From Archangium sp. (GTDB lineage Bacteria > Myxococcota > Myxococcia > Myxococcales > Myxococcaceae), in assembly GCA_047600485.1 (NCBI GenBank), contig JASGKS010000001.1:6848259-6912258 (forward strand): 64,000 nucleotides of DNA, read 5' to 3'. Below, in pieces: positions 5,614-23,542 of this stretch. Each line of letters starts with the position of its first letter. Position 1 is the first letter of the stretch. The position numbers and the translations under genes are program-made. The notes beneath the pieces are model-generated. The model was not told where the DNA came from. It saw only the letters and a list, made by a program, of their open reading frames with translations, and searched no databases.

Positions 5614-5656
5614 TCTCCCTCTCCTTGCGAAGCGGGGAGAGGGCCGGGGTGAGGGG
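5614..5656 (+). repeat. Dispersed palindromic repeat, copy 1 (subtype with TTGCGAAGC loop), immediately after the TAA stop of the upstream + gene
   Basis: Sequence TCTCCCTCTCCTTGCGAAGCGGGGAGAGGGCCGGGGTGAGGGG. It contains the hairpin CCCTCTCC / GGAGAGGG followed by a G-tract tail, and is nearly identical to the copy at 61193. Confidence 0.7.
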
Positions 5657-5690: not shown

Positions 5691-7658
5691 ATGAAGGCCG
5701 TGCTCAAGGTGTTGCTCGGGCTCACGCTCGGGCTCGTCATCGCCGAGTTCGCGTTCCGCATGCGCGACGACGGAGCGTTTCCGCATCTCAACTTCTACGT
5801 GGCCGACGAAGCGCTCGGCGCGCGGCTGCAGCCCAACGCGTCGATGAAGCTCCGCGTCGGCGAGAACAACCCGCTCACCACGGTGACGACCAATTCTCGC
5901 GGCTACCGCGGCGCGGAATGGGCGGCGCCTTCGCCGAACGACGTGCTGGTGGTCGGAGACAGCCAGACCTTCGGCCTCGGCGTGAACGACGACGAGACGT
6001 TCAGCGCGAAGCTCGCGAAGGAACTGAACGCGCCGGTCTTGAACCTCGGCGTGCCGACGTGGGGCCCGCTCGAATACTCGGCCGCGCTCGAAGAGCAGTT
6101 GAAAGACCGCAAGCCGCGCGCGTGCGTCTACGTGCTCAACCTCGCCAACGACCTGTTCGAGGCCGACCGCCCGAACTCGAAGCGCCACAAAATCTGGGAC
6201 GGCTGGGCGGTGCGCGCAGAGACCGCGCCGGCGTCGGTGACGAACTTCCCGGGCCGCTCGTGGTTCATGTCGCAGAGCCACCTGGTGTTCGGCGTTCGCA
6301 AGCTGATGCACAAGAAAGACGTGTTGGACGAGGGGTTCCGCTCGGAAGGTTCGTTCACCGACGTGGTCGCGGCGTCCGAGACGATGCGCGCCGAAGCGGC
6401 CGATGAGCCGACGAAGAAGTTCCTCGCCGCGCGCAAGGAACTCGACGACCAGCTCCGCGCCGTGAGCTCGAAGCTCGAGGAGCACTTCGAGCAGAAAATC
6501 TACGACGACGACGAGTGGGCGACGAAGTTGAGCGAGCGCGCTGGAGAGAACCCCAACGACATCTTCGACGAAGACGGTGAAGCGGGCCGCAGCGTGAACA
6601 GCACCGCGCTGCATCTGGTCACCGCGGCGATGTCCGACTCCAACAACGACGCGTGGCTCAAGAAGCTCGCTGATGAGAAGGGCGACCCGGAATTGAAGCG
6701 CATCATCGACGAGCGCAAAGAACTGCGCGCCAAGATGCTCGCGCTGCGCATCGAGTCGCAGGCCCTCAACGAGGTGCCGCTCGATCGCGTGCTCGCGCGA
6801 ACCAAGAAGGCGTGTGAAGCGGCGGGCGCGCGGCTGCTGGTGGTGACCTTGCCGCTCGACGTGATGGTCTCGCCCGACGAGTGGAAGAAGTACGGCACCA
6901 AGCCCATCGACCTCACGCCGACGGTCGCGCTGCGCCAGAGCCTCACGCGACGCATCGAAGCGCTGGGCGCCGAAGCCGTCGACCCGACGTTCGCGCTCGC
7001 GGCGGTCGAGCCCGGAGCGTTCCTCGACAAGGACCTGCACATGACTCCGAAGGGTCACGAGCAGGTCGCGGGAGTCATCGCCAACATCCTGCGCTCGCCG
7101 CCAAAGGCGCCGGTGCTGCAGCTGCCTGCCGGGCGTTCGTGGCTGCCAACGCAGGCGGAGTGCGAGGCCGCTCCGGAGTGCACGGTGAAGGGCAGCTCGA
7201 AGGCGAAGTGTTCGACCAAGTTGATTCGCGAGTGGCTGTTCGTCGACTGCGAGCTGTCACCCGATGGGCCGCACCTCAAGCTGGTGAACGTCACGAGCGG
7301 CGGTCACGGCGACGCGTACAGCGCGAGCAACGGGCGTTTCTACGTGCCGATTCTCGAGGGCGACTCGGTGCGCGCGACGTTCTCGTGGTTCATGGAAGAG
7401 CGAGAGCTGCAGCTCGATTTCCCCAAGGGCGGGAAGCTGGCGATGTCGTTCACCGACGCGAAGAAAGCGTCGCCTCCCGCAAGCTCGAACGTCGCTACGC
7501 CCGCCGCGTTCCCCGAGACCGACGTGTCGTGCCCCGCGGGCGAGCTGGTCTCGGGCGCGACGCGGCGGTGCGCGAAGCCGTGCTCGGCTGATCATCGCTG
7601 CGCCGAAGGGCAGCATTGCGAGCCGTGGCCGACCGGAGAGTTCTGCGCAACGCCTTGA
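5691..7658 (+). CDS. SGNH/GDSL-hydrolase-family protein with an N-terminal TM anchor, a coiled-coil insert and a Cys-rich C-terminal domain
   Basis: The start MKAVLKVLLGLTLGLVIAEF is preferred over the upstream TTG of the track ORF. A GDS block VLVVGDSQTFGLGV and a block V DLHMTPKGHEQVA are present. The C-terminus has about 14 Cys. A paralog lies at 15843..17873 on the opposite strand. Confidence 0.6.
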   Translation: MKAVLKVLLGLTLGLVIAEFAFRMRDDGAFPHLNFYVADEALGARLQPNASMKLRVGENNPLTTVTTNSRGYRGAEWAAPSPNDVLVVGDSQTFGLGVNDDETFSAKLAKELNAPVLNLGVPTWGPLEYSAALEEQLKDRKPRACVYVLNLANDLFEADRPNSKRHKIWDGWAVRAETAPASVTNFPGRSWFMSQSHLVFGVRKLMHKKDVLDEGFRSEGSFTDVVAASETMRAEAADEPTKKFLAARKELDDQLRAVSSKLEEHFEQKIYDDDEWATKLSERAGENPNDIFDEDGEAGRSVNSTALHLVTAAMSDSNNDAWLKKLADEKGDPELKRIIDERKELRAKMLALRIESQALNEVPLDRVLARTKKACEAAGARLLVVTLPLDVMVSPDEWKKYGTKPIDLTPTVALRQSLTRRIEALGAEAVDPTFALAAVEPGAFLDKDLHMTPKGHEQVAGVIANILRSPPKAPVLQLPAGRSWLPTQAECEAAPECTVKGSSKAKCSTKLIREWLFVDCELSPDGPHLKLVNVTSGGHGDAYSASNGRFYVPILEGDSVRATFSWFMEERELQLDFPKGGKLAMSFTDAKKASPPASSNVATPAAFPETDVSCPAGELVSGATRRCAKPCSADHRCAEGQHCEPWPTGEFCATP

Positions 7659-8594: not shown

Positions 8595-9613
8595 TTCGTC
8601 ACAAGCTCGCGGCGATTCCCGAGAAGGCTCAGCTGCAGTTGCCGGTGGCGATTGCTCCGTCGCTCGACGCGTTGGTGGTGAAGGCTCCGAAGGTCGTGCC
8701 GTTCACCGCCGAAGACCTGATGCTCTTCGCGGATCAGCTCGCTCGTGAGCGCGCGCCGAAGATGAAACGGAAGTACGGAGAGAAGCTGCAGCTCGGAGAC
8801 GTCGCCGTCATCGACGTGCTGGCGTACCACCAGGGCAAGCTGCTCCCGTTCAGCGCGCGTCAGGGCATGGAGATTGAAGTCGGCGCCGGCGATTCGCTGC
8901 CGTGGCTCGACGAGTCGCTGCTCGAGTGCGCGGTCGGTGACGGGCTCGAGCTGCCGGTCACGTTGCCGAACGACGAGCTGGTCGAGGCGATGCGCGGAGC
9001 CGAGGTCACGTATCTGGTCGACGTCGTGTCGGCGTACCGCGTCGAGCTGCCGTCGGTGGACAGTGCGGACTTCTTGTCTCTGCTGAGCCGCAAGGCCACG
9101 ACGCTCGACGGCGCGATGGAAGAACTGTCGGAGCAGCTCGAAGCGCAGCGCATCGCCGAAGCGTGGGAAGAAGCGCGCGAGTGCGTCATCGACGAGCTCG
9201 TTCGTCGCACCGAGGTAACGCTCTCGCCCGAGCTGGTCGACGAAGAAATCAAGCGCGCGTGGATGCGCGTCGAGCTGCCGCTGCTCGAGTCGAAGGGCTT
9301 CGAGCCCGATGAACTTCGTGAAGCGCTGAGCGGTTGGCTCGGTGATGGCCCCACGCGCACCGACGCCGAGCGCAGACTGCGGCTCGCGCTCGGAGTGAAG
9401 GCCTTCGCCGAGAAGGAACAGCTCACCTTCGACAAGGACGCGATGAAGTTGATGGTCGACGACGCGAAGGCGCGCTTCGGAATCAACAAGGAAGAGGTGC
9501 GCAAGGCGCTGAAGGACCCGCGCGCTCCGGCGCACGACCAGATGGTCGCGGTCGGAATTCAGATGCGCGTGCTCGAGCTGGCGATGAGCGCTGCGAAGAT
9601 CGACTGGGTGTGA
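8591..9613 (+). CDS. Trigger-factor-like protein (PPIase-like plus TF C-terminal domain) lacking the N-terminal ribosome-binding domain
   Basis: 340 aa. The stretch GDVAVIDVLAYHQGKLLPFSARQGMEIEVGAGDSLPWLDESL...VTLPNDELVEAMRGAEVTYLVDVVSAYRVELPSVDSADF parallels the E. coli Tig segment GDRVTIDFTGSVDGEEF...MIPGFEDGI...[36 protein letters not shown]. The C-terminal helical arm begins TLSPELVDEEIKRA. There is no GFRxGKVP-type N-domain. Confidence 0.55.
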   Translation: MIRHKLAAIPEKAQLQLPVAIAPSLDALVVKAPKVVPFTAEDLMLFADQLARERAPKMKRKYGEKLQLGDVAVIDVLAYHQGKLLPFSARQGMEIEVGAGDSLPWLDESLLECAVGDGLELPVTLPNDELVEAMRGAEVTYLVDVVSAYRVELPSVDSADFLSLLSRKATTLDGAMEELSEQLEAQRIAEAWEEARECVIDELVRRTEVTLSPELVDEEIKRAWMRVELPLLESKGFEPDELREALSGWLGDGPTRTDAERRLRLALGVKAFAEKEQLTFDKDAMKLMVDDAKARFGINKEEVRKALKDPRAPAHDQMVAVGIQMRVLELAMSAAKIDWV

Positions 9614-9614
9614 A

Positions 9615-10028
9615 TCAGCGCGGCGTGATGGGCGCCTTCTTGAACCGGCCCCACGCGACGAACGCCGCGAGACCACCCATCACGAAGTTGGGCACCAGGC
9701 CGCCGTACTCTCCACGCGAGACGTGGAAGCCGGCGGCGAGAATCATCACCACGACGAGCCCGGCGGCGGCGAGCGCGGTGAGCTTCGGCTGAATGCGCGT
9801 GAGCGACGGGAGCAGCAGCCCGATTCCTCCGAGCAGCTCGCTGACGCCGATGAAGCGCACCAGCGCGGGTGGAACGGCGCCGGGCCACACCATCTGCTTC
9901 GCGAGCTCTTCGATGGGCGCGGTCGACTTCATGAGACCCGCCATTCCGAACGCGAGCGCGAGCAGGACCTGAACGATCCACAGCGCGATGTTGAGACCCT
10001 TCGAGGGCTGGGTGGTTTCGGTCGACAT
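9615..10028 (-). CDS. DoxX-family membrane protein
   Basis: 137 aa with four TM helices. The LALAFGMAGLMK and LLGGIGLLLP motifs are typical of DoxX. It is divergent from an HxlR regulator, the classic pairing. Confidence 0.8.
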   Translation of the reverse strand: MSTETTQPSKGLNIALWIVQVLLALAFGMAGLMKSTAPIEELAKQMVWPGAVPPALVRFIGVSELLGGIGLLLPSLTRIQPKLTALAAAGLVVVMILAAGFHVSRGEYGGLVPNFVMGGLAAFVAWGRFKKAPITPR

Positions 10029-10092
10029 GACGTGGTTCCTGTTCGTGCTCCCGGTGCCTGCATGGCCCGTTGGTACCTGTTAGTAACTGGCC

Positions 10093-10536
10093 ATGCCGAG
10101 AGCGCAAGAAGGCACATTGATGTCACCGGGTCTGAAGAAGGTGGCGGTTCCAGTTCGCGCGGTCGACCCGGCGTGCATGGCGGTGCGCGACGTGCTCTCG
10201 CTGGTCGGCGACAAGTGGAGCGTGCTGGTGGTCGGCATTCTCGGCAACGGCACGCAGCGGTTCAGCGAGTTGAAGCGCTCCATCGAGGGCATCTCGCAGC
10301 GCATGCTGACGCTCACGCTGCGCGGGCTCGAGCGCGATGGCTTGGTGAAGCGCACGGTGTTTCCGACCGTGCCTCCGCGGGTGGAATACGAGCTGACGAA
10401 GCTCGGCCGCACGTTGCTCGGGCCGGTGAGCGCGCTCGCGAGCTGGGCGAACGAGAATCACGAAGAGCTCACGGCGGCGCGGAAGAAATACGAGCTCAAG
10501 AATCCCCCTCTCCCGCGAGGGAGAGGGTTGGGGTGA
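10093..10536 (+). CDS. HxlR-family (MarR-like winged-helix) transcriptional regulator; C-terminus extended by the dispersed repeat
   Basis: The core [75 protein letters not shown] is canonical HxlR. The likely start is MSPGLKK (about 10120). The last 10 aa ([10 protein letters not shown]) are encoded by repeat copy 2. Confidence 0.8.
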
Positions 10537-10539
10537 GGG
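10503..10539 (+). repeat. Dispersed palindromic repeat, copy 2 (GCGA-loop subtype), forming the 3' end of the HxlR ORF and lying between convergent genes
   Basis: CCCCCTCTCCCGCGAGGGAGAGGGTTGGGGTGAGGGT. Coordinates are corrected by -1 for the label drift in this zone. Confidence 0.7.
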
Positions 10540-10547
10540 TCGAAGAC

Positions 10548-11447
10548 TCAGCGAAGTCTGGCTTGCGTCTGCACGTCAGCGAACTCAGCAACCGCTGAGA
10601 GCACCGCCTTCAGCACCGGGCTCGCGCGTCGCTCCGGCAGATAGAGCACGAAGATGTCGATGCTCTGCCCCACGTGCGTCGGCAGCACGCGCACCAATCG
10701 CTCGTCGGCGACTTCCGAGAACACGACGTGAAAGGGCAGCAGCGCAATGCCCACGCCCGCGACCGCGGCCTCACGCAGCGCCGAGAGATCATTCGTCACC
10801 AACCGCGTCGCCACCGGAAACGAACCGCCCTTCAGCCTCGGCCACGCGGGCGCGCTGCCTGGCGTCGCCATCGTCAGCAGCGCATGGCCCTGCAGCTCAT
10901 CGATGTTCTGCGGCGTGCCGTGCGCCTTCAGATAGTCGGGTGACGCCACGGCGATGAGCTCGGCTTCCGCGAGGCGCCGCCGCAACCAGCCGCTCGGCTC
11001 CGGAGTACCCATCACCAACACCGCGTCGAACCCGTCTTCCAGCCGCAGCGACTGCCGGTCGGTCACGGTGAGCTCGAGGTCGATGAGCGGGTGACGCGAG
11101 TGCAGGAACGCGAAGAACCAACCGATGAACGCGCCGCTCACGCCGGCCGGCATCGCGAGGCGAAGTACCCCTCGTACTTCGTTGCCGGTGGCGAGCACTT
11201 CTTCCCGCACCGTTTCCAACTGTGCCAACGACGCAACGGCGCCCTCGACCAGCCGACGCCCGGCGGTGGTGAGCACGAAGCGATGCGTGGTGCGCTCGGC
11301 AATCTTCAACCCGAGAATTTCTTCCACGCGCGCGAGGCGACGACTCACGGTACTGCGCGGAACTCCGAGCTCGCGGGCGCTCTGACTCACCGAGCCGGTG
11401 CGGGCGAGATTCACCACCGTTGGAAGCAGCGGGAGGAGTTCTTCCAT
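10548..11447 (-). CDS. LysR-family transcriptional regulator
   Basis: 299 aa. The HTH is MEELLPLLPTVVNLARTGSVSQSARELGVPRSTVSRRLARVEEILGLKIAERTTHRFVLTTAGRRL, followed by a LysR substrate-binding domain. The track ORF 10548..12194 fuses it to a wrong-frame N-terminal extension that is antisense to the divergent + gene. Confidence 0.85.
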   Translation of the reverse strand: MEELLPLLPTVVNLARTGSVSQSARELGVPRSTVSRRLARVEEILGLKIAERTTHRFVLTTAGRRLVEGAVASLAQLETVREEVLATGNEVRGVLRLAMPAGVSGAFIGWFFAFLHSRHPLIDLELTVTDRQSLRLEDGFDAVLVMGTPEPSGWLRRRLAEAELIAVASPDYLKAHGTPQNIDELQGHALLTMATPGSAPAWPRLKGGSFPVATRLVTNDLSALREAAVAGVGIALLPFHVVFSEVADERLVRVLPTHVGQSIDIFVLYLPERRASPVLKAVLSAVAEFADVQTQARLR

Positions 11448-13086: not shown

Positions 13087-15090
13087 GTGGCACGCATGCG
13101 TTGGTCGCTCCTCTGTTTCACGCTCGTAGCGTGCGCCCCACCCGACCCTGACTCGGCTCGCATCTACGCCTTCGAAGAAGACCGCGAATCGGTTCGCTCC
13201 GCGCTGCATGGCCTGAGCACCGCCGCACGCTTCACGCAGGACACCGACCTCGAGCGCGCTGCCGCCGAGCTCGGGCTGGGGCTCGTCCTCATCCGCGATG
13301 GGCAGACGTGCCCCGGGTGTTACGAGCTGATTCCCCGCAACGAGCGTGTCGTCGAGCTGCATGCGTCGACCGAGCTGGGCGTGCAGTACGGCCTCGCGCA
13401 CTGGCTCGAGTCACTCGGTTACGGCTTCTTTCACCCGAACCACACGCGCGAGCCCGAGCACTTCCCGAAGAAGCTCTCGCTCACGGCGGCGAAGTACGTG
13501 CCCGAGATTCCGCGGCGAGGACTGCACCTGCACACGCTCCACCCCATCGAGCCGATGTTCGATTTCTGGGTGCCGTCGGACGAACACTTCGAAGGCGCGA
13601 AGGCGACCATCGACTGGCTGATTCGCAATCGCGGCAACTACATCCAATGGGCGGCGCTCGACGACATTCGCAAGGACCCGGCGAAGGCCGCGCAGTGGCG
13701 CGTGCACACCAACCGCATTCTCTCCTACGCGAGCGAGCGCGGCGTTGAGACCGGGCTCACCGTGCAGCTCTTCGACAACGCGTCGCTGCAGCAGTCGTAC
13801 ACGCTCATCGATTCGGCGCGCCCTGATGACGAGGCGGCGTTGACCGAGCGGCTGCGCACCGTGGTCGACGGCGTTCCGTTCGGAAATCTCAACGTGTCGT
13901 TCGGCGAGTTCTTCGGCGCCGACCCGCAGGCCTTCATCGACAAGGTCGACACCACCGAGCGATTGCTGAGCGCCATTCGTCCTGACGCGTCGATGTCGGC
14001 GGTGGTGCACGTTGGCGACACGCCAGAGCTGCGCGTCACGTACCAGGGCCGCGAGCAGCTCTATTACTTCCTCGTGCGGTACGTGAACCCGCGCATCATC
14101 CCGCGCGTGCACACGGTGATGTTCTACAACTTGTTCGATTCCGCGGGCGGCGCGTACCAGCACCGTGACTTCTCGGAGCACCGCGAGTTCCTGCGCGAGC
14201 GCATCGAGCGCGGAGTTCCCGCGAGCTACTACCCGGAGTCGGCGTATTGGGTCGCGTTCGACAACTCGGTGCCGACGTATTTGCCGGTGTACCTGCGCTC
14301 GCGCTTCACCGACCTCGCGGGCATTCGCGCGCTGGCAGACACCGGCTTCGCCAACCTCGATGAGCACCTGGTGTTCAGCAGCGGTTGGGAATGGGGCTAC
14401 TGGCAGAACGACGCGATGACGCTGCGCATGTCGTACGCGCTGCCGTCGAAGTGGAGTGACGGGCTCGACGCTGCGCTCGGCCCGACGGCGGGCGACATCG
14501 CGCGACGGCTCGGTGAGGTGCAGCACCGCGCGCTCATCGTCGAAGAGCTCGCTCCGTGGTTGGCGGGGAGAGATCAGGTCATCGACGCTGCGGCCACGCT
14601 CGGCCACATCGCCGCGCCGGATCGCCTGGCGTTCTCCGCGTTGGGTGCGGACTTCGGCGCGACGCTGCAGAAGCTCGAGACGCACGCGCTCGAGGTCGAA
14701 GCGCTCGCGAGCGAGGCGTCGCCGCTGCGAGGTGACGATGCGTTCTTGAACGAGTTCGTCGACGGCGTGGAAATCACCGCGGCGCGCACGCGCTTCATCT
14801 GGGCAGTGGCTTCCGCGGCGCGCGCCTTCAATCTGGGTCAGCCGCACGACGCGTTCCTGCAGCAAGCGCAGGATGCCTTCGCGCGCGGCACGCGACTCGC
14901 CGGACAGCGGCGCGTTGGGTTTCACCACCCGAACCCGTCACTGCTCGTCTCCGACGGGAGCAACCCGACGTTCTACGACTACGGCTATCTGCGCGACGCG
15001 AACACGCTGTGCTTCTGGAAACGCGAGCTCGCGCAGGTTCGCAACCTCGTCGAGAACGCCGGGCTCACGGTGCCCGGCTGCGTCCTCTGA
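13087..15090 (+). CDS. Large hypothetical lipoprotein (667 aa); a TIM-barrel glycosidase-like fold is possible but unproven
   Basis: Lipobox LVACAPP. There is no clear catalytic motif. The stop is followed 3 nt later by repeat copy 3. Confidence 0.5.
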   Translation: MARMRWSLLCFTLVACAPPDPDSARIYAFEEDRESVRSALHGLSTAARFTQDTDLERAAAELGLGLVLIRDGQTCPGCYELIPRNERVVELHASTELGVQYGLAHWLESLGYGFFHPNHTREPEHFPKKLSLTAAKYVPEIPRRGLHLHTLHPIEPMFDFWVPSDEHFEGAKATIDWLIRNRGNYIQWAALDDIRKDPAKAAQWRVHTNRILSYASERGVETGLTVQLFDNASLQQSYTLIDSARPDDEAALTERLRTVVDGVPFGNLNVSFGEFFGADPQAFIDKVDTTERLLSAIRPDASMSAVVHVGDTPELRVTYQGREQLYYFLVRYVNPRIIPRVHTVMFYNLFDSAGGAYQHRDFSEHREFLRERIERGVPASYYPESAYWVAFDNSVPTYLPVYLRSRFTDLAGIRALADTGFANLDEHLVFSSGWEWGYWQNDAMTLRMSYALPSKWSDGLDAALGPTAGDIARRLGEVQHRALIVEELAPWLAGRDQVIDAAATLGHIAAPDRLAFSALGADFGATLQKLETHALEVEALASEASPLRGDDAFLNEFVDGVEITAARTRFIWAVASAARAFNLGQPHDAFLQQAQDAFARGTRLAGQRRVGFHHPNPSLLVSDGSNPTFYDYGYLRDANTLCFWKRELAQVRNLVENAGLTVPGCVL

Positions 15091-15093
15091 ACT

Positions 15094-15132
15094 CCCCCTC
15101 TCCCGCGAGGGAGAGGGTCGGGGTGAGGGTGG
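15094..15132 (+). repeat. Dispersed palindromic repeat, copy 3, between convergent genes
   Basis: CCCCCTCTCCCGCGAGGGAGAGGGTCGGGGTGAGGGTGG, starting 4 nt after the TGA at 15088-15090. Confidence 0.75.
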
Positions 15133-15144
15133 ACCGAAAGAAGT

Positions 15145-15846
15145 TCACTTCGGGAGTCGGAGGTCGTTGAGCACTCGCCGAGACTGATCACGGCGGATTG
15201 GCGGGAGACTCTCGTCGTTCGCGAGTTGCTCCAGCCCGTCGAGCAACTTCCACTTCCGCCCACCAGGCGGCAGGCGATGCAGCTCGAGTGACGGTCCCGG
15301 CACGCGACAGACGCGATCGACTCGCACCAGCGCCTGCGAGCCTTGCGCGGCATCGATGACTCCGAAGATGACGACGCCCGTCTGCGCGAGCAGTGAATCG
15401 AAGAGCAGCGCGTCGTTCTCGCGCCACACGCGACGCGGCTCGAACGGATTTTCGATACCGAGCTCGACACTCCCGCCGCGAAGCCCGAGGAACGAGCCGC
15501 ACGTCACTCGCGTCGAGCGCGCGACCTCTTCTTCGATTTCCGCGAGCGTCAGCTCGGCGTCAACCGATGGGAGATACCGACCGACGAGCCGGTACTCGGT
15601 GATCATCTGACTGCAGTCGAGCTCGAGCACGCCGAGCTGGCCGCGCACGTGAATGGTCTGCCCCGGCTCGAAAGACTCGCCGCTCGCGACGCTCGGAGCG
15701 TCAGCCCATTCCTGCGGCAAACACGGAGGCAACGCCTCGACGCGCGCACTCCATTCGCGCCAGGTCTGTGCGCGCACGTCAACCGCAACCGGTTCGGGGC
15801 GGTGCGCACAGCTCATCGCGAAGACGGCGAAGAGAAGAAATCTCAC
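15145..15846 (-). CDS. Hypothetical secreted protein or lipoprotein
   Basis: A GTG start gives MRFLLFAVFAMSCAHRP.. (signal peptide with a Cys). The start overlaps the stop of the upstream SGNH paralog by 4 nt. The upstream part of track ORF 15145..16017 is rejected as an antisense extension. Confidence 0.4.
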   Translation of the reverse strand: MRFLLFAVFAMSCAHRPEPVAVDVRAQTWREWSARVEALPPCLPQEWADAPSVASGESFEPGQTIHVRGQLGVLELDCSQMITEYRLVGRYLPSVDAELTLAEIEEEVARSTRVTCGSFLGLRGGSVELGIENPFEPRRVWRENDALLFDSLLAQTGVVIFGVIDAAQGSQALVRVDRVCRVPGPSLELHRLPPGGRKWKLLDGLEQLANDESLPPIRRDQSRRVLNDLRLPK

Positions 15847-17873
15847 TGGCGGCAGCGCCCCGCACGGCCCGCGCCGTTCGCGCACTTCGGTCGAAACCCG
15901 GGATGTCCCTGCGCACACGCCATCAGCGCGACGCAGTCGGCTGCGTACTGCTGGATGCACGGCATGCTCGTCTCTCCCCACACTTCCGTCTTGTCCTCGA
16001 GCAACTGCTGCGCGCACCGCGAGTACTGACTCAGCGCGTCCTGATGCGGCAACGGCGGGTCATCTTCGAACTCGTTCACCGGATGGAAGACGATCTTCTC
16101 GAGCGGGCCGTTCACCGTGAATTGTTCATCGAGCCCCTCGAAGTCGAAGGTGATGACGAATTCCTGCGGAGGCTCGAGGGGAATCACCGCGCTCACGGCT
16201 CCGACACCACCACCGCTCAGCGCGAGCTCGTTCGCATCACCCTTCGTCACCATCACCGAGCGGCCGGACCGACAGAACACGCGCAGCCACGACTTCGCGA
16301 TGCGCGCCTCGCATTCATCGAGAGTGGTTTCGATCGGAATCTGCGGAGCCTCGTCCCACTCCAGCGGCGTCGGCAGCTCGGCCAGCTCACTTCGCGGCGG
16401 AGCCGGCTCGCGCAACGTCTCCGCGATGACCTTCGCAACGACACCCTGCCCCTTCGGCGTGAGGTGAAGATCTCCGTCGAGAAACGCTCCCGGTTCCGTG
16501 GCGCGCAGCGGCTCGAGCAGATCGACCGCACGCATTCCCGCGGCGCGCGTCACCTCGACGAGCTGACGATTCAAGGTGAGCGTGCCCTCGAGATCGATCG
16601 GCTCCGCTCCGTACTTCTTCCACTCGTCACGCGAGACCTGCACGTCGAGCGGCAGCACGACGAGCGTCACCTGCACACCCGGGTGCGAACGCTCGAACTC
16701 CGAAAGCAAGTCACGCACGCTCGTGACCAGCGCCGGAGGCAGCGGCTCGGCCGAAGGCATCGACCACCGCAAATTCTGAATTCGCGCGCGCGCTTCCTTC
16801 TTCTCGGCCTCGAGCGCGAGCCGCTTCGCCCGGGCGTTCTCGATCGCCTTCAGTTGCTGCTCACGAAACACCGCGCGCTTCTTCACGTCTTCGATGCGGG
16901 CATTCTCGAGCTGCTCAGCGGCGAGCCGAATCATGTCCGCGGTGATGGTCACGCGGCGCGACATCTCGAAGCCGCCTTGCCACACGATGTCTCCGGGGTT
17001 CGCGTTCGCCGTCTTCTCGAGCCGGAAGCCACGCAGCGGGCCGGTGCCGATGTGCTGCTCGGGGCCTTCCCACGCCTCGGCCTGCTCCGGCTCGGGCGGC
17101 TGCTTCTCGAGCGTGCGTTTCTCTTTGAGCAGCTCTTCATTCACCGCGCTACGCGCGCTCTTGTCGGCGACTTCATCGCGCGGCGCAGGCTGAAGCTCGA
17201 CCAAATCCTTCCAGTGCCCTTCTGACTTCAGCGACTCACTGATGTCCTTCCCCGCGAGCCAGCGTCGCAGCGCGTAGACCAGATGGGACTTCGCCATCAG
17301 CGCGTGGCGGAACGGAAACTGCGTCACCTCGCCCGGAGCGTTCTCCTTCCGCACCGCCCAGCCGTCCCACACCGCGTGCCGCGTGGTGTTCGGCCGCGTG
17401 AGCTCGAAGAAGTCGTTGCTCGCGTTGAGTACGAACACGACATGCTTCGCCTTGCGCGTCTTCAGAAGCTCGTCGGCGGTCGCCAGGTATTCGCGCGGGC
17501 CGTACGTGGGAACGCCAGCGTTCAGAACCGGAACCTTCAGCTCGGCCGCGAGCACCGCCGACGCAGTCTCACCATCTTCCACGCCCAGCCCGAAGACCTG
17601 GGAGTCACCGACCACGATGACGTCTTCTCCCGTCGTCGCTGGCCATTCACCGCCTCGGAAGCCGAGCGAGTTGGTGCGCGCCGTCGTGATGGGGTTGACG
17701 CCGAGCTTCAGACTTTCGCTCGCGTTCGACTCGAGACGAACCGCGCGCTCGGCATCGGGCACGTAGAAATTCACATGCGGGAACGACGCATCGTCTCGTG
17801 CGCGGAAGAGGAACTCCGCCGCGACGAGACCGATGGTGAGGCCCACGAAAATCTGCAGCGCCTTCTTGATCAC
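15843..17873 (-). CDS. SGNH/GDSL-hydrolase-family protein, paralog of 5691..7658
   Basis: Same architecture as the paralog: TM anchor IFVGLTIGLVAAEF, GDS block VIVVGDSQVFGLGV, DLHLTPKGQGVVA, and a Cys-rich C-terminus. The GTG start at 17873 overlaps the upstream gene's stop as GTGA. The alternative ATG at 17957 would overlap the upstream gene by 88 nt. Confidence 0.6.
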   Translation of the reverse strand: MIKKALQIFVGLTIGLVAAEFLFRARDDASFPHVNFYVPDAERAVRLESNASESLKLGVNPITTARTNSLGFRGGEWPATTGEDVIVVGDSQVFGLGVEDGETASAVLAAELKVPVLNAGVPTYGPREYLATADELLKTRKAKHVVFVLNASNDFFELTRPNTTRHAVWDGWAVRKENAPGEVTQFPFRHALMAKSHLVYALRRWLAGKDISESLKSEGHWKDLVELQPAPRDEVADKSARSAVNEELLKEKRTLEKQPPEPEQAEAWEGPEQHIGTGPLRGFRLEKTANANPGDIVWQGGFEMSRRVTITADMIRLAAEQLENARIEDVKKRAVFREQQLKAIENARAKRLALEAEKKEARARIQNLRWSMPSAEPLPPALVTSVRDLLSEFERSHPGVQVTLVVLPLDVQVSRDEWKKYGAEPIDLEGTLTLNRQLVEVTRAAGMRAVDLLEPLRATEPGAFLDGDLHLTPKGQGVVAKVIAETLREPAPPRSELAELPTPLEWDEAPQIPIETTLDECEARIAKSWLRVFCRSGRSVMVTKGDANELALSGGGVGAVSAVIPLEPPQEFVITFDFEGLDEQFTVNGPLEKIVFHPVNEFEDDPPLPHQDALSQYSRCAQQLLEDKTEVWGETSMPCIQQYAADCVALMACAQGHPGFRPKCANGAGRAGRCRQ

Positions 17874-19435
17874 ATTCCCTGCACGCCGGGCGCGGTGGCG
17901 ACGTCGTACGCGAACGTGATCTGCGACTGCGCGCGCGGCTCCAGCTCGACCACCCACGTCGCGAAGCCGTTCTCGTCGACCTTCGGCTTGGGCGTGGTGC
18001 GCTTCGCGCCGAGCGTGATTTTCACCTGCTCGATTTCCGAGACGGGCATGCGCTCGATGACTTCGATCTTCTTCGGCTCGTCACCGAGGCTCGACACGTA
18101 GAGCCACACCGTCTTCGTCATCGTCTTCCAGTCGGTCGACGTCGCGTCCTGCGTGCGGTCTCGCTCGGTGCGGGCGAGGCGCAGCGTCGAGTCGGGCCCG
18201 AACGACAGCTTGAACTCCTCACCCGGAGCGACGAACAGGACCTTCGTCCAACCCACGAAGCCGTTCTGCAAGAGCAGCTCGACCGGCCCCGCGAGAATCG
18301 GGAACTTCGCTTCGTTCTTCTGCAGCGACGTGAGGAACACGCGCAGCTCGACCTCGGGGTACGCGACGAGCTTCTGCTGGGGCGTCGCGCTGAACTCGAA
18401 GAGCGGCACGGTGTTCGGCCGGCCATCGCTCGGCACGGTGCACGGACCCTTCGCCTCGAGGTTGCGAATTTCACCGCCGTCGTCGACGCCCGGCAGCTCG
18501 ACGGTCGAAGGCGGAGGCGCACCACCGGGCCCACCGCTCGCCTTCGCTTTCTGAATCACGACCTCGCGCGCGGCGACCACCAGCTTCTCGTTCTTCTTCT
18601 GCGCGGCGAGCAGGTCGTCGGACAACAGCGGCGGCTCGATGCCGAGCGACGCGCGCGCGGTGGAGAACACGAGCTTGCAGTTCGCCCAGTCCTCTCCGGT
18701 GTTCTGCCAGACGCACGCGCGGCTCTCGAAGCTGAACTTGCCGTCGGCCAGTCGCGCGGTGTGCAGCGGGCGCCACAGCGCGTTGGGCACCGTGTACTCG
18801 AAGGTGATTTCCACGTTCGCGTCGGCGGTGGTCACCACGTCGGCCTCGAGCCACGTCACGAAGCGCGAGTCGGGCCGGTCGAACGCCTGACGCTGATTCA
18901 CCAGGCGCTGACGGTCTTCGACCAGGTCGCGCTGCTGGTGCTGCAGCTCGAGGTGCTTCGCGCGCAGCCCGCGAATCTTCTCGAACAGCCCTTCGAGCAA
19001 GTCCTTCCACGGCGACTGCGGCTGGCCCCACGACACGTCTTCGGGCAATTCGGTGAACGCGCGGGTGAGCACCTGCTCGAGCCGTTCCTTGCGGCCGTCG
19101 ACGAGGCCCGCGTCTTCCACCAGGCGACGCCACTGCTCGGTGAGCTTCTCGATCTCGAGCTCGAGGTTCTTCAACGCCTCGGGCTTCTCGCGTGGAGCCA
19201 CCTTCATCGCGCGGCGCACGCGCACGTCGCTGACCTTCGCTCCATTGGAAGCGACGGCGCGCAGCGACAGGTCCTGCAGCACGGGCGCGACCTCGGGCAC
19301 CAGCACCAGGTGTTGCCCCGCGCTCAACTTCACGCTGCCCACGCGCTGCACCTGCGCGCGGTCTTCGAGCAGCGTCACCTTCTTCACCGGCGCCTCGAAC
19401 GTCACGGCCTTCTCGGGAAAGAGACTCATGTTCAC
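17870..19435 (-). CDS. DUF4139/DUF4140-like protein (mucoidy-inhibitor MuiA-like family, tentative)
   Basis: 521 aa. The layout is an N-terminal beta-rich region, a central coiled coil (LELEIEKLTEQWRRLVEDAGL..), and a C-terminal beta-rich domain. Its start overlaps the upstream paralog's stop by 4 nt. Confidence 0.45.
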   Translation of the reverse strand: MNMSLFPEKAVTFEAPVKKVTLLEDRAQVQRVGSVKLSAGQHLVLVPEVAPVLQDLSLRAVASNGAKVSDVRVRRAMKVAPREKPEALKNLELEIEKLTEQWRRLVEDAGLVDGRKERLEQVLTRAFTELPEDVSWGQPQSPWKDLLEGLFEKIRGLRAKHLELQHQQRDLVEDRQRLVNQRQAFDRPDSRFVTWLEADVVTTADANVEITFEYTVPNALWRPLHTARLADGKFSFESRACVWQNTGEDWANCKLVFSTARASLGIEPPLLSDDLLAAQKKNEKLVVAAREVVIQKAKASGGPGGAPPPSTVELPGVDDGGEIRNLEAKGPCTVPSDGRPNTVPLFEFSATPQQKLVAYPEVELRVFLTSLQKNEAKFPILAGPVELLLQNGFVGWTKVLFVAPGEEFKLSFGPDSTLRLARTERDRTQDATSTDWKTMTKTVWLYVSSLGDEPKKIEVIERMPVSEIEQVKITLGAKRTTPKPKVDENGFATWVVELEPRAQSQITFAYDVATAPGVQGM

Positions 19436-21663
19436 GCCTCCCTTCGGTTGCCGCCGACGAGTTCATTGTTCGCGTAGAGCTTCACGCGGTACTGCGCGCT
19501 CAACTTCTGCGTCGCGCCCGGCTTCACGGTGAACGTCCACTTGCGGCCGCCTTCGATGACGCGCCCGCGCTCTTCTTGTTTGTACGGCTCCCACGGCGGT
19601 TTGACCGTGCCCTCGTCGACCACCACTTCGGCGTCGGGTGCGGGCTGCGGCACGCGCTCGCGGATTTCGCAGTTCGCCGCGCGCTCGAGGTTGTTCACCA
19701 CGTCGAAGCTCAGGTCGTGAATCAGCTCGTTGGTCGCGACCACCTTGTCGCCCGAGCGCTGCTCGACGTACTTCGTGTTGCGCGCGACCTTGATGCCCTG
19801 CTCCACGCCGAGCGAGAGCTTGAAGTCACCGCCCGGAGCGACCGACGGCAGCCGTGTGGTGAGCACGTATTCTCCGCCGACGCTCACCTCGACCGGCCCG
19901 GGCAGCAGCGGAATCGAGATGGGGTTGCGCACCAGCGCCTGGCGGTAGACCGACGTGTCTTCACGCGGCACGCAGACGTAGAGCACTTCGCTCGTCGCGG
20001 TGCGCGTGCCCACGGGAACCGAGTGGAACGTGCCATCGCTCGGCACGTCGACCGCCGCGTCGGTGTCGTAGACGTAGTCGTACCAACCGGCCTCGGAGCG
20101 CACGTCGACGGTTCCGTTCGGCGCCGCGAGGTTGAACAGTTCGTGACCCTGGCGCTCGGCGTTCTCCACCAAAGACAACACATCGAAGGTGACGACCAGG
20201 CCGAGCGCAGAGAGTGAGTCGGTCAGTGATTGACGGCGATCGACTGGCGTGAGGCTCCCGCGGGTGTGGGCGCCCGACGCGCTCAGTCGCAGCGACGCGT
20301 AGAGCATCACGTCGAGCTGCGCCTCGACCTCACCGCCGCCGCCGAACTCGTCGCTCTCTTCCTTCATCATGTCGCGCGCCGCGGCCTTCTTGGCCTTCAT
20401 CGGCGGACCACCGCGACCGCCCGGCGCCGGAGCCGGAGCAGCCATCGCCGGCGGAGGCGCGGGAGGCGGCATGGCACCCGCCGACGCGCCCATGCTCATG
20501 GTCAGCGTGCGCATCGACACCGACTTCTCGCGGCGCACTGAGCGCTCCTCTTCCATCGAATCGTCGAGTGACGCTTCGGCGGCCGGCGCCATGTCGGGCT
20601 CGGGCGGCTGGAGCATCGGAGGCGCGGCGACCACGATGCCTCCCGAGAGCGCAGGCGGCTGCCACGAGGGAATCACCGGCACTGCCGCGCGCGCCGAAGC
20701 GAGCCCACGGTCGTAGTCGAGGAACAGCGAGCTCGCGCCCTGCGGCGGAGGGCGGAAGCCGCGCTGCGACGGCGGAGGCGGCTGCGCGCGACCGATGCGA
20801 ATCGCTCCCAGCTCGGGGAGCTCGGTCCAGCTCATGGGAGACGCGGTGGAGAGACGCAGCGTCACACCGCGCCAGTCTTCACCGGTGCGCTGCGCGACGA
20901 CGGCGCGCATCTGCAGGTCGGCCTGCGTGCAGTCGCGCGTCATGCGGCACTGGTAGGCAGGCGCCCAACGCGCGCCGAGCACGAAGTACTCGAGCACCAG
21001 GCGCGCCTTCTTCGCCTTGTCGGTGGTGACGAGCGTGGCGGTGACCGACTTCTGCAGCTCGTCGGGCTTCACGTGCCACGCGGTCGAGGCGAGCGAGATT
21101 TGCCGCTGCAGCTCGCGCTGTTTTTCTTCGAGCTGCTTCACCTCGTCACGCGCACTGCGCATCAACGCGATGCGGGCGGCGACGGAGTCTTCGTAGAGCT
21201 GCTCCATCGCCACGCGCGCGCCCATCGGAGCGGGCGGCGGCATCTTTCCCTCTTCACCATCGGGGCGCGGGAGCACGTTGAGCGCGCTCAGGCGATCGAG
21301 CTCGGCCTGCAACTGCGCGAGGCGGTCGTGTTGCACGCTGAGCGCGTCTTGCACCTCGCGCAGGGCCTTCGCTTCGGGAGCGACGGGCGGCGTGCCCCGC
21401 GGCGGCGCGAACAAACCGACGCGCACGTTGGACAGCAGGAGCATCTGACCTTCGGCTTCCAGGCGAACGCGCACCGTGTGGTCGGCGAGCGCGAGCGGGA
21501 GGCCGGTGACGAAGACCTCGGGCGGTGTCCCTCCCGAGAAGTCGAGCTCGGCGGTCCGGCGAACGGTGGCTCCGCGGTGGTACAGCGTGACTGATTCGAC
21601 GCGCGTCTCGATGGGCTTCACGTGGGTGGTTCCCTCCGGGCGTGGAGAAACCCACGCCCTCAT
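19432..21663 (-). CDS. DUF4139-like paralog with a Pro/Ala/Met-rich low-complexity insertion
   Basis: The start is taken as MRAWVSPRPEG.. (ATG at 21663), leaving a 100-nt divergent region with parD. The insertion is PPPAPPPAMAAPAPAPGGRGGPPMKAKK. The terminal domains are collinear with 17870..19435. Confidence 0.45.
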   Translation of the reverse strand: MRAWVSPRPEGTTHVKPIETRVESVTLYHRGATVRRTAELDFSGGTPPEVFVTGLPLALADHTVRVRLEAEGQMLLLSNVRVGLFAPPRGTPPVAPEAKALREVQDALSVQHDRLAQLQAELDRLSALNVLPRPDGEEGKMPPPAPMGARVAMEQLYEDSVAARIALMRSARDEVKQLEEKQRELQRQISLASTAWHVKPDELQKSVTATLVTTDKAKKARLVLEYFVLGARWAPAYQCRMTRDCTQADLQMRAVVAQRTGEDWRGVTLRLSTASPMSWTELPELGAIRIGRAQPPPPSQRGFRPPPQGASSLFLDYDRGLASARAAVPVIPSWQPPALSGGIVVAAPPMLQPPEPDMAPAAEASLDDSMEEERSVRREKSVSMRTLTMSMGASAGAMPPPAPPPAMAAPAPAPGGRGGPPMKAKKAAARDMMKEESDEFGGGGEVEAQLDVMLYASLRLSASGAHTRGSLTPVDRRQSLTDSLSALGLVVTFDVLSLVENAERQGHELFNLAAPNGTVDVRSEAGWYDYVYDTDAAVDVPSDGTFHSVPVGTRTATSEVLYVCVPREDTSVYRQALVRNPISIPLLPGPVEVSVGGEYVLTTRLPSVAPGGDFKLSLGVEQGIKVARNTKYVEQRSGDKVVATNELIHDLSFDVVNNLERAANCEIRERVPQPAPDAEVVVDEGTVKPPWEPYKQEERGRVIEGGRKWTFTVKPGATQKLSAQYRVKLYANNELVGGNRREA

Positions 21664-21730
21664 CGAAGGTTCCAACGAAAACGCACGTGTTCTTGTGACA
21701 GCCCAGCGGCCCACCAGCTCGGGGAGGCCC

Positions 21731-21763
21731 TTGACGGTGTGGTGCACTACAAATGTAATGCAC
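21731..21763 (+). promoter_or_regulatory. Sigma-70-like promoter TTGACG-N17-TGTAAT with an overlapping near-perfect palindrome (GTGCACTACA aa TGTAATGCAC), immediately upstream of parD; the transcript may be leaderless
   Basis: The -35 TTGACG is at 21731-21736 and the -10 TGTAAT at 21754-21759, with the ATG at 21766. The palindrome 21742-21763 is a 9/10 inverted repeat covering the -10. This is the classic autoregulated toxin-antitoxin promoter layout. Confidence 0.45.
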
Positions 21764-21765
21764 GC

Positions 21766-22023
21766 ATGAAGACGTCGCTGCTGCCAGCCACGCGGGTCGA
21801 CCCGAAGTTGCGGGTTCGCATCGAGGCGCTCTTGAGCGAAGGGGAGACGCTCTCTTCCTTCATCGAGTCGGCGGTCCTGAATCAGGCGAACTGGCGTGAC
21901 GAGCAGCGTGCCTTCGTTGCTCGAGGTCTCGAGGCCGAGGCGTCGGGCGACTGGGTGGAGCCGGCTGCCGTGTTCAAAGCGGTGCGCACCGCCGCAGGGA
22001 AGAAGCGCCGCAAGAATCCATGA
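21766..22023 (+). CDS. Ribbon-helix-helix antitoxin (ParD-like)
   Basis: 85 aa, MKTSLLPATRVDPKLRVRIEALLSEGETLSSFIESAVLNQ... It has an RHH-like N-terminus and an acidic C-terminus, and overlaps the toxin start by 4 nt (ATGA). Confidence 0.6.
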   Translation: MKTSLLPATRVDPKLRVRIEALLSEGETLSSFIESAVLNQANWRDEQRAFVARGLEAEASGDWVEPAAVFKAVRTAAGKKRRKNP

Positions 22024-22322
22024 AGCGGTATCGCGTTCTCTTCTCGCGCACCGCGAGTCGCGACCTGCAACGGCTCGCCGCGTTTCTTCGCTCTCGCGAC
22101 GCTGCCGACGCCCGGCTCGTGGAGCCGACTCTGCGTGCTGCGGTGGAGGCGCTGAAGCGCCTTCCGTTCCTCGGCCGGGTCGCGGCCAACCAGACAGACC
22201 CGACTCTGCGCGAGTTGCTCATTCCGTTCGGCGCGACCGGCTACGTGCTGCTCTATCGCGTGAGGACCGGAGAGATCAGGGTGCTGGCTGTTCGGCATCA
22301 GCTCGAAGGGCAGTACCAGTAG
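22020..22322 (+). CDS. ParE/RelE-family toxin
   Basis: 100 aa, MKRYRVLFSRTASRDLQRL...GYVLLYRVRTGEIRVLAVRHQ. This matches the ParE/RelE fold pattern. Confidence 0.7.
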   Translation: MKRYRVLFSRTASRDLQRLAAFLRSRDAADARLVEPTLRAAVEALKRLPFLGRVAANQTDPTLRELLIPFGATGYVLLYRVRTGEIRVLAVRHQLEGQYQ

Positions 22323-23157
22323 CGAGGCGCCCGTTGAGGAACGAGTCGACCTCGTCCCACGCGGCGTCGCGCAGGAGGATGTCCTGGTGGCCGACGCCTT
22401 CGAGGCGCACGAAACGGCGTGGGCCCGCGAGCGCTTCGTAGATTCGCAGCGAGTGTTTCATCGGCAGATACGCATCTTCCGAGCCGTGCAGCAGCAACAC
22501 CGGCACCGTGATTTTCGCAGCCGACTTCACCGGTGAGACATCGGCGACGTTGAAGTGCGCTTCACGCTCGGCGACCTCGACCGCGCGTGCCTGCGCCTTC
22601 GCGTCGAGGAAGAAGGGCGCCTTGTCCCGCACCACGGTCTGCAAGTCGGCGAACGGTGCGCCGGCGACCACCAGCTTGATGCGCGGGTCTTGCGCCGCGG
22701 CCTGCAGCACCACCGCTGCGCCCAGAGACTCTCCGACCACCGCGACCGGCAGCTCGCGACCGAAGCGCGCGAGCGCGGTGTCGATCACGAGACTCAAGTC
22801 GCCCGCTTCCTTCGCACCGTACGTGACGAATTCGCCCTTCGACTCGCCATGCGCGCGCTGGTCGTAGGCGACGACTGCGTAGCCCTCGGCGACGAAGCGC
22901 TCGGCGGCCGAGACGAAGTGCTGACGGTTGATGTCCTTGCCGTGCACGAAGACCACGACGGCGCGCGGCGTGTCTTTCGGAGCGAAGCGCCAACCGAACA
23001 ACGCGACGCCGTCGGTGGTGGTGACCTCGAAGTTCTCGTGCGGAATGGAGGGCTCGCCGATGACCGGGACGCGCATCGGCATTACCAACGCGCCGGAGGC
23101 GAAGTTCCCGGCGACACAGCCGGAGAGAACGAGACAGAGAAGCGGTGCAAATCGCAT
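22276..23157 (-). CDS. Alpha/beta-hydrolase-fold lipoprotein
   Basis: Start MRFAPLLCLVLSGCVAG. A nucleophile elbow GESLGAAV and the run VVFVHGKD..HGSEDAYLP are present. Its 3' end overlaps parE convergently by 47 nt. Confidence 0.75.
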   Translation of the reverse strand: MRFAPLLCLVLSGCVAGNFASGALVMPMRVPVIGEPSIPHENFEVTTTDGVALFGWRFAPKDTPRAVVVFVHGKDINRQHFVSAAERFVAEGYAVVAYDQRAHGESKGEFVTYGAKEAGDLSLVIDTALARFGRELPVAVVGESLGAAVVLQAAAQDPRIKLVVAGAPFADLQTVVRDKAPFFLDAKAQARAVEVAEREAHFNVADVSPVKSAAKITVPVLLLHGSEDAYLPMKHSLRIYEALAGPRRFVRLEGVGHQDILLRDAAWDEVDSFLNGRLATGTALRADAEQPAP

Positions 23158-23353
23158 CGCCGTGGCAGGTGCACGACGTGTGCGCGTGGCAACGGGCTGA
23201 TCATTCGCGGCCGTTGCGCAGCGTTCTGCGCAGCTCACGTCACGGAGGCGACACAGCACTGCACTGGGGAGGGCAGAGCACTCGGGTCTCGGGCCGTGCA
23301 CGACGCCAGCAGCCCCTCACGTCGAACGAATTCTGCTCACGGCACTCACCACT

Positions 23354-23371
23354 TCGTGAATTTGGCTGTGC
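23354..23371. promoter_or_regulatory. Perfect 8-bp-arm palindrome TGGCTGTG-cc-CACAGCCA in a locally lower-GC intergenic region
   Basis: It lies about 200 nt upstream of the hydrolase start and about 170 nt downstream of the 23543 gene's stop. It is a candidate operator or terminator stem. Confidence 0.25.
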
Positions 23372-23542
23372 CCACAGCCACTTTCACGTACTGGTGAAAA
23401 GTGAGACAAATTCCCCTCAAATTGAGGAGCACCCGCGCTTTCTGGCACGGCCGAGAACTAGAAACAACGACCCACCCCAATGCAGTTGATCGATCGGTCC
23501 GCTCGGAGCGAACAGCCATTTTTACGAAATCGTGCGCCGTCA

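Follow-up and report, generated by a model that had tools for sequence, protein, structure and literature searches.

Results

Gene content and junctions of the locus

A string of four co-directional genes lies on the minus strand at positions 15145-21663 of the DNA analysed here, a 64-kb segment (64,000 nt) of a metagenome-assembled genome (MAG) of Archangium sp. (assembly GCA_047600485.1, 9.42-Mb contig JASGKS010000001.1, positions 6,848,259 to 6,912,258; NCBI locus tags QM817_*). We refer to this whole segment as the window and give all coordinates within it; its G+C content is 65%-71%. We named the genes g1 to g4 in their order of transcription: g1 and g2 code for a long and a short protein of the MuiA family, g3 for a predicted membrane-anchored enzyme of the SGNH type, and g4 for a putative lipoprotein. 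All four open reading frames (ORFs) show coding-type patterns of G+C by codon position, with G+C at third codon positions (GC3) of 0.77-0.91, and thus the four-gene minus-strand string described in a first-pass annotation of this DNA is real.

The same annotation placed a 4-nt ATGA or GTGA overlap of stop and start codons at every junction. The tetranucleotide GTGA does occur at 19435-19432, 17873-17870, and 15846-15843, but ATGA is found at none of the three. A start codon that overlaps a stop is mechanically easy to find, and we judged each junction by the real start of the downstream gene. Examined in this way, the overlap is secure only between g2 and g3; g1 and g2 are separated by a 2-nt spacer, and the start of g4 is uncertain. 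The resulting gaps, all on the same strand, are +2 nt for g1/g2, -4 nt for g2/g3, and -4 nt (or -43 nt) for g3/g4. Overlaps of the NTGA form are routine in this genome: elsewhere in the window, ATGA joins at least three unrelated pairs of genes (2907-2910, 8591-8594, and 22020-22023). The tight spacing of g1 to g4 is the usual packing of an operon.

Two MuiA-family paralogs

Profile searches with hidden Markov models (HMMs) bear out the presence of two paralogous DUF4139-type proteins. Both g1 (19432..21621, minus strand; 729 aa, NCBI MFT3712148.1) and g2 (17870..19429, minus strand; 519 aa, 100% identical to NCBI protein P0121) exceed the curated cut-offs for TIGR02231, the mucoidy inhibitor MuiA family (206.2 bits for g1 and 264.6 bits for g2; cut-off 112.6), and also those for DUF4140 (47.9 and 59.2 bits) and DUF4139 (107.8 and 109 bits), which follow each other in this order from the N to the C terminus. 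In g1, a coiled coil lies between the two domains. Because g1 and g2 are only 27%-36% identical to each other, they are old and distant paralogs.

A Pro/Ala/Met-rich insert had been noticed in one of the two proteins, and it is indeed present in g1 as a low-complexity segment of roughly 190 aa within the DUF4139 domain (approximately 20254..20811, minus strand). The 205-position DUF4139 model is accordingly seen to stretch over residues 224-728 of a 743-aa reading of g1. At the site of the insert, g2 has a shorter disordered loop (residues 259-321, with a predicted local distance difference test score, pLDDT, below 50 in the AlphaFold2 model). The g2 model as a whole (pLDDT 79.6) begins with a beta-sandwich, includes a long antiparallel hairpin of coiled coil, and has further domains rich in beta structure, and no solved structure was found to resemble it beyond the coiled coil. 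Since no hydrophobic segment was seen at the N terminus of g1 or g2, and no signal peptide is visible in either, both proteins are predicted to be cytoplasmic.

The starts of g1 and g2 are here corrected relative to the earlier gene model. For g1, the start is GTG 21621, as in the 729-aa protein deposited at NCBI, and not ATG 21663; a closely related Archangium MAG (hereafter the sister MAG) has ATC in place of ATG 21663 and an in-frame TGA 9 nt before its own g1 start. The upper coordinate of 21663 used previously thus lies 42 nt too far upstream. The first-pass annotation had also named two alternative upstream ATG starts, 21747 for g1 and 17957 for g3; both codons are GTG, and neither position is supported. 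For 21747, the in-frame stop of the sister MAG rules out this start, and a g3 starting at 17957 would overlap g2 in another frame for 88 nt, a reading that no homolog supports. The corrected start of g2 concerns the junction with g1, and is treated in the next section.

The g1/g2 junction is conserved

The junction between g1 and g2 (19427..19442, minus strand) is compact. A Shine-Dalgarno (SD) sequence, GGGAGG, at 19442-19437 lies within the last codons of g1; the g1 stop codon TGA (19434-19432) is followed by the 2-nt spacer and then by ATG 19429-19427, so that the strand reads AAC CGA AGG GAG GCG TGA AC ATG. Three observations identify this ATG as the start of g2. The deposited NCBI protein of 519 aa starts there; the distance from GGGAGG is 7 nt, as opposed to 1 nt only for the overlapping GTG 19435; and an ortholog at metagenome locus L086 has the same N terminus (MSLFPEKA) with CTGA at the stop, leaving the ATG as the sole possible start. 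We therefore place a 2-nt spacer, and no overlap, between g1 and g2.

The arrangement was surveyed in 72 metagenome loci retrieved with a g2 profile, after gathering by peptide patterns taken from g2 relatives. A g1-type gene lies directly upstream of the g2 homolog in 59 of the 65 loci that have at least 600 nt of upstream sequence. Among 61 distinct junctions, the g2 start falls -4 to +5 nt from the g1 stop in 48, the commonest gaps being +1 nt (17 junctions), +3 nt (10), and -4 nt (8), and an SD-like motif occurs within the last 15 nt of g1 in 51. The usual C terminus of g1, N-R-R-E-A, is coded AAC CGN AGG GAG GCN, and the sequence GGGAGG is contained in these codons. The long and short genes are likewise paired, with gaps of 1-4 nt, among the called genes of L001 (the sister MAG), L081, L083, and L084; these include three more distant genomes, among them that of Hyalangium gracile, and the genes that follow the pair differ in each of the three. 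The pair is conserved in Myxococcota and also in low-GC metagenome contigs.

No other gene accompanies the pair in this way. De novo clustering of the flanking ORFs revealed no conserved third gene beside it, and neither g3 nor g4 follows it in any of the 48 metagenome loci with at least 1.5 kb of downstream sequence. Of the three junctions, that between g1 and g2 alone has been kept in evolution. Translational coupling of the MuiA-family pair appears, from these junctions, to be a conserved design feature, with which the window, having its 2-nt spacer, agrees. The coupling put forward in the first-pass annotation is thus plausible from the tight spacing, and at g1/g2 it is matched across the family, whereas the fixed stoichiometry of four products that was linked to it is unsupported.

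Two side observations concern this junction. The C terminus of the long paralog, G-N-R-R-E-A (19435-19449 in the window, and the 3' ends of the long genes in L001 and L081-L157), doubles as the SD sequence of the next gene, and this stretch of g1 seems to be under constraint at two levels, as protein and as translation signal. In six lower-GC metagenome loci (L098, L100, L101, L114, L120, and L139), the long and short genes are ~740-830 nt apart and uncoupled; the separation could be due to an inserted gene or to a different operon layout.

g3 encodes a predicted SGNH-type enzyme

The boundary between g2 and g3 is the sole secure 4-nt overlap of the string (GTGA, 17870..17873, minus strand), and here the first-pass annotation was correct. 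The 676-aa NCBI protein (P0001) starts at GTG 17873; the N termini of the closest homologs coincide with this start, right at the transmembrane helix; and the sister MAG has an identical GTGA arrangement.

The protein encoded by g3 (15843..17873, minus strand) belongs to a large family of Myxococcota proteins of 650-770 aa. Its N-terminal transmembrane helix (residues 2-26) is followed by the SGNH domain, which a helical insert of ~230 aa divides in two, and the protein ends in a beta domain and a Cys-rich tail. All eight cysteines fall in the C-terminal 160 residues, and the N-terminal anchor together with these cysteines argues for a periplasmic catalytic domain. Across 24 homologs, the block I motif G89-D90-S91-Q92 (GDSQ, with Ser91) is invariant. 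Invariant residues G120/G125, N150, and N153-D154 were assigned by position only to SGNH blocks II (Gly) and III (Asn), which supply the oxyanion hole, and an invariant D468-L-H470 provides an Asp/His pair with D-x-H spacing, as against D-x-x-H in the canonical block V. Invariant residues are also found next to the membrane (E20, F23, and D27).

The AlphaFold2 model of g3 has a pLDDT of 75.8, with values of 90-98 in the blocks of the catalytic domain. A Foldseek search with this model returned CgnD (8a2n, E = 1e-5), followed by a GDSL lipolytic protein, TesA, Axe2, and DltD. Most matches had probabilities of 0.9-1.0, and TM-scores on the query were 0.09-0.22, low because g3 is three times longer. 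The Pfam profile Lipase_GDSL_2 reached 28.3 bits, below its cut-off of 32.9, and matched with the C-terminal half of the model only, the domain being split by the insert. PF16822 (ALGX) scored above its cut-off (31.5 versus 26.5), but the match covers only positions 42-134 of 268. The description of g3 as a membrane-anchored SGNH protein is thus confirmed in its anchor, its motifs, and its modelled fold, and by motifs and fold we place g3 among the predicted members of the SGNH superfamily. We do not class it with the AlgX/AlgJ acetyltransferases, because the D-x-H spacing is non-canonical and the AlgX-domain match is partial.

The SGNH family and its usual neighbours

A second SGNH-family gene had been reported at 5691..7658 (plus strand), and it is real: its 655-aa product, which matches an NCBI protein exactly (QM817_31215), is 42% identical to g3 over 532 aa, and the gene occupies a syntenic place in the sister MAG. 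The ORFs beside it (5151-5612, 7704-8594, and 8591-9613) were tried as conserved SGNH partners, which they are not. With QM817_33720, located elsewhere on the contig, the genome holds at least three SGNH paralogs.

We examined 79 genome loci of this family, using tblastn and HMM searches for nearby DUF4139 genes. Such genes were found near the SGNH gene at one locus of the 79, that of the sister MAG. At 47 of these loci, genes for a ferritin-like protein of ~220 aa and a NodU/CmcH-type carbamoyltransferase come after the SGNH gene; neither of these two is present in the window. The sister MAG itself carries a further SGNH paralog in this ferritin-like and carbamoyltransferase context (L065). 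We conclude that g3 is a lineage-specific extra paralog, and that, among the loci surveyed, an SGNH gene following the MuiA pair is confined to the window and the sister MAG. The usual context of the family points to a pathway of glycan or lipid modification in which DUF4139 proteins have no part, and the recurrence of the SGNH/ferritin-like/carbamoyltransferase triad across Myxococcota may mark a modification pathway not described so far. In the triad, the ferritin-like or rubrerythrin-like gene stands directly after the SGNH gene, and the carbamoyltransferase combines PF02543 and PF16861 (L006-L080; for example, 9931-10716 and 10691-12472 in L008).

We observed substantial differences in protein divergence along the locus. 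Between the window and the sister MAG, g2 is 88% identical, g1 79%, and the convergent gene that follows the string 75%, while g3, at 53%, has evolved faster than any gene around it. In this comparison with L001, the two SGNH paralogs (g3, 53%; 5691-7658, 65%) diverge much faster than all of their neighbours (75%-88%), a pattern that suggests relaxed or diversifying selection on both exposed enzymes.

g4 lies on a genome-specific indel

The last gene, g4 (15145..15846, minus strand; 233 aa if read from GTG 15846), belongs to a rare family, with seven representatives among 1.84 billion proteins, and was matched by neither Pfam nor NCBIfam models. For most of its length g4 is 40%-56% identical to its homologs, and it retains an invariant Cys78; its C terminus is ~30 aa shorter than theirs. 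A signal peptide and a lipobox Cys align with MRFLLFAVFAMSC of the window in six of the seven representatives, while the seventh has no N-terminal region. The box in g4, A-M-S-C, departs from the canonical [LVI][ASTVI][GAS]C at positions -3 and -2, whereas most homologs have boxes such as L-A-T-A-C, L-L-A-A-C, or L-V-A-G-C on the same Cys. The call of a small lipoprotein made in the first-pass annotation can therefore be kept, as a putative one, given the aligned lipobox Cys.

The deposited g4 (MFT3712145.1, QM817_31260, 210 aa) starts at GTG 15777, which removes the signal peptide and the lipobox Cys. Because this start discards a lipobox conserved in the homologs, it was probably mis-called, and the true start more likely lies upstream, either at GTG 15846, giving a 4-nt overlap with g3, or at GTG 15885, giving an overlap of 43 nt. 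This amounts to a correction of the deposited annotation, which in its present form cuts off a conserved lipoprotein signal. For the g3/g4 overlap of the first-pass annotation, it follows that the GTGA (15843..15846, minus strand), formed by the g3 stop and a candidate g4 start, exists, but that it is set against the NCBI start at 15777 and is unique to this genome.

This GTGA lies at the edge of an indel of ~780 bp. In the sister MAG, the gene order is the ParE module, the long DUF4139 gene, the short DUF4139 gene, and the SGNH gene, followed 44 nt later by a convergent gene of 668 aa; g4 is not there. DNA alignment shows that window positions 15864-15087, which carry g4, stand in place of 66 nt in the sister MAG. 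The closest homolog of g4 stands by itself in an unrelated gene context. At 15100..15129, where g4 and a 667-aa gene converge, the window contains between their ends a GC-rich hairpin resembling repetitive extragenic palindromic (REP) elements, CCCTCTCCC-TCGC-GGGAGAGGG, which is a possible end of the transcription unit.

Discussion

A probable composite gene string around a conserved pair

The four genes probably form a composite co-directional string and not a dedicated four-protein system, and the conserved, functionally meaningful unit is most likely the g1-g2 bicistron. We reject a four-gene module on the evidence of synteny, because the pair is conserved alone, the SGNH family is normally found elsewhere, and g4 sits on a genome-specific indel. 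At the core of the locus lies an ancient and widely conserved bicistron of a long and a short MuiA paralog, in which the last codons of g1 (..N-R-R-E-A) contain GGGAGG and the g2 ATG stands only a few bases beyond the stop, so that g2 would be translated by coupling. Such an arrangement would give roughly equimolar synthesis of g1 and g2, which may then associate through their coiled coils into a cytoplasmic heteromer. In the common ancestor of the two Archangium MAGs, an extra SGNH paralog, g3, would have been joined to the pair via the GTGA; its product is predicted to be anchored in the membrane, to face the periplasm, and to have the fold of an SGNH serine esterase or acyltransferase. Finally, the ~780-bp indel would have put the rare lipoprotein gene g4 at the 3' end of g3 in this genome only, whether by addition or by retention. 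All four genes probably share one transcript that ends at the REP-like hairpin, since the genes stand too close together to leave space for promoters or terminators and the hairpin follows g4. Their co-transcription would then reflect, as part of the same probable reading, a recent juxtaposition with no conserved functional partnership.

Several points weigh against this reading. Co-transcription and coupling were deduced from spacing alone, and the g1-g2 heteromer is itself a prediction. The peptide patterns behind the metagenome survey were drawn from g2 relatives, so that very distant members of the family are under-sampled. The g2/g3 GTGA persists in two genomes in which g3 is only 53% identical; because it survived this divergence, the juxtaposition is not very recent, and selection may maintain it. 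Moreover, MuiA of Pseudomonas aeruginosa is tied to an envelope-stress regulon and to alginate (PMC10418997), and because of these ties a link between a MuiA pair and an envelope enzyme is not absurd.

Such a link is the substance of one alternative, according to which g1, g2, and g3 were recruited into a functional unit in the Archangium lineage, with the pair controlling or sensing, for example, the target of the periplasmic enzyme, and with g4 irrelevant. The maintenance of gene order and of the GTGA in both genomes while g3 diverged to 53% would agree with it, and the invariant juxtamembrane residues of g3 (E20, F23, and D27) could contact cytoplasmic partners. The arrangement is, however, restricted to two closely related MAGs, and the contrast between g3 (53%) and g1 and g2 (79%-88%) is more in keeping with an extra paralog under relaxed constraint than with an integrated subunit. 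The genome also keeps two other SGNH paralogs, one of which, QM817_33720, corresponds to a gene of the sister MAG (L065) that stands beside the usual ferritin-like and carbamoyltransferase partners. We consider recruitment unlikely.

About equally improbable, in our judgement, is that g4 is a decaying gene fragment and the operon effectively one of three genes. Decay would account for the ~30 conserved C-terminal residues that are missing, the non-canonical A-M-S-C lipobox, and the lowest GC3 of the four genes (0.77); it would also suit the location of g4 on an indel beside a REP-like element and an NCBI gene call that omits the whole signal peptide. Against it, the frame of 233 codons is intact with a coding-type G+C pattern, and identity to the homologs is 40%-56% over most of the length, with Cys78 kept.

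The model of the first-pass annotation, in which the overlaps fix the stoichiometry of four products that together form an envelope complex modifying surface polysaccharide or lipid, is very unlikely: tight junctions (+2, -4, and -4 nt), names that hint at alginate (MuiA as mucoidy inhibitor, and the partial AlgX-domain match of g3), and the place of MuiA in the envelope-stress regulon of P. aeruginosa (PMC10418997) speak for it, but synteny, compartments, and flanking genes are all against it. The four genes occur together only here, g4 being absent even from the sister MAG; the pair travels alone, g2/g3 is found in two genomes only and g3/g4 in one, and g3 is missing from 48 of 48 other DUF4139-pair loci with enough downstream sequence. 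Neither g1 nor g2 carries an export signal, and their supposed partners, g3 and g4, are predicted to be extracytoplasmic. No polysaccharide-synthesis gene (including glycosyltransferase, membrane-bound O-acyltransferase [MBOAT], and export genes) is found within ~10 kb among the flanking genes scanned, and 4-nt overlaps are commonplace in the window. The hint at alginate in the names MuiA and AlgX goes no further than the labels themselves.

Comparison with known systems

The type member of TIGR02231 is MuiA of P. aeruginosa (PA1494), with which g1 and g2 share family membership and the combination of DUF4140 and DUF4139. MuiA is a single named gene, muiA, whereas the window has a coupled long and short pair of ancient paralogs. 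MuiA is reportedly periplasmic, while g1 and g2 have no signal peptide. The muiA gene is driven by SbrI, an extracytoplasmic function (ECF) sigma factor (PMC10418997), and the inhibition of mucoidy and alginate by MuiA and its place in the SbrI envelope-stress regulon are phenotypes described from P. aeruginosa only (PMC10418997, PMC7603352).

For g3, the resemblance to AlgJ and AlgX (PF16822) consists of a score above the gathering threshold and of an AlgJ-like combination of N-terminal anchor and periplasmic catalytic domain. Proteins of the AlgJ/AlgX family have a D-x-H motif, which may be compared with the D-x-H of g3. Unlike in these proteins, the nucleophile Ser of g3 is N-terminal, in the GDSQ block, following the classical SGNH order; a beta domain and a Cys-rich tail take the place of the carbohydrate-binding module of AlgX, and the fold is split by the ~230-aa insert. 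The genetic context differs as well: the flanking genes that were scanned include neither an AlgI-type MBOAT nor any other gene for alginate, and the usual neighbours of the g3 family are a ferritin-like protein and a NodU/CmcH-type carbamoyltransferase. Classical SGNH/GDSL enzymes (TesA, Axe2) and the myxobacterial CgnD resemble g3 in fold and differ from it in having D-x-x-H where g3 has D-x-H. DltD shares with g3 the N-terminal anchor and an extracytoplasmic SGNH-like domain. The junctions, too, have counterparts in other coupled bacterial operons, both in the SD sequence within the upstream coding sequence at g1/g2 and in the GTGA at g2/g3, and there is nothing unusual in them. The g1-g4 operon is, in short, of ordinary architecture and a composite of known families.

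In our literature search, DUF4139, DUF4140, and TIGR02231 were mentioned only in passing, MuiA appeared only for P. aeruginosa, and 'mucoidy inhibitor' was not found together with Myxococcus; neither the MuiA-family gene pair nor the SGNH/ferritin-like/carbamoyltransferase triad turned up. The locus matters little for the original four-protein claim, given that the overlaps are routine and the complex is unsupported. Of more interest are the MuiA pair with its hard-wired coupling junction, and the triad. The long and short MuiA genes with their built-in junction are the unit to study for the function of DUF4139. A wider proposal, which we put forward tentatively and think somewhat unlikely as a whole, is that the MuiA pair makes an obligate equimolar cytoplasmic heteromer, an unrecognised two-subunit module whose balance would be set by the SD sequence within the conserved N-R-R-E codons of the first gene, and that the SGNH triad is an undescribed envelope-modification pathway. 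If this were true, the joining of the pair to an SGNH enzyme in Archangium would offer a possible first experimental handle on DUF4139 function.

Other features of the window

The genes flanking the string include those for a LysR regulator, an HxlR regulator, a DoxX protein, a KdpD-like two-component pair, an OmpL-like porin, an alpha/beta hydrolase, and a protein with tetratricopeptide repeat (TPR) and transglutaminase domains. Two of the ATGA overlaps noted above belong to neighbouring genes: that at 2907-2910 joins the KdpD-like histidine kinase to its response regulator, and that at 8591-8594 joins a Pro-rich protein of 296 aa to a protein with a trigger-factor C-terminal domain. Rfam gave no matches in 14000-23500, and no tRNA was found within the window. 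A scan for consensus promoters and terminators returned 0 promoters and four terminator-like sites, at or below the 4.9 expected from shuffled sequence.

Divergently from g1, on the plus strand, lies a type II toxin-antitoxin pair (21766-22023 and 22020-22322), whose two genes overlap by ATGA. It consists of an antitoxin candidate of 85 aa without a Pfam match and a ParE toxin (PF05016, 47.6 bits), and it is kept at the equivalent position in the sister MAG. The ParE pair prompted a reading of the locus as a defence system, which was discarded, as PADLOC matched none of six proteins.

The REP-like element is a 21-mer, GGGAGAGGGTCGGGGTGAGGG, with nine copies in the window against 0.01 expected (5635-5655, 10519-10539, 15109-15129, 38878-38898, 41209-41229, 44495-44515, 58648-58668, 61213-61233, and 61278-61298). 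Several of them stand immediately beyond gene ends, as do the copies at 5635, 15109, and 41209, and the copy at 15109, which forms the hairpin behind g4, borders the g4 indel.

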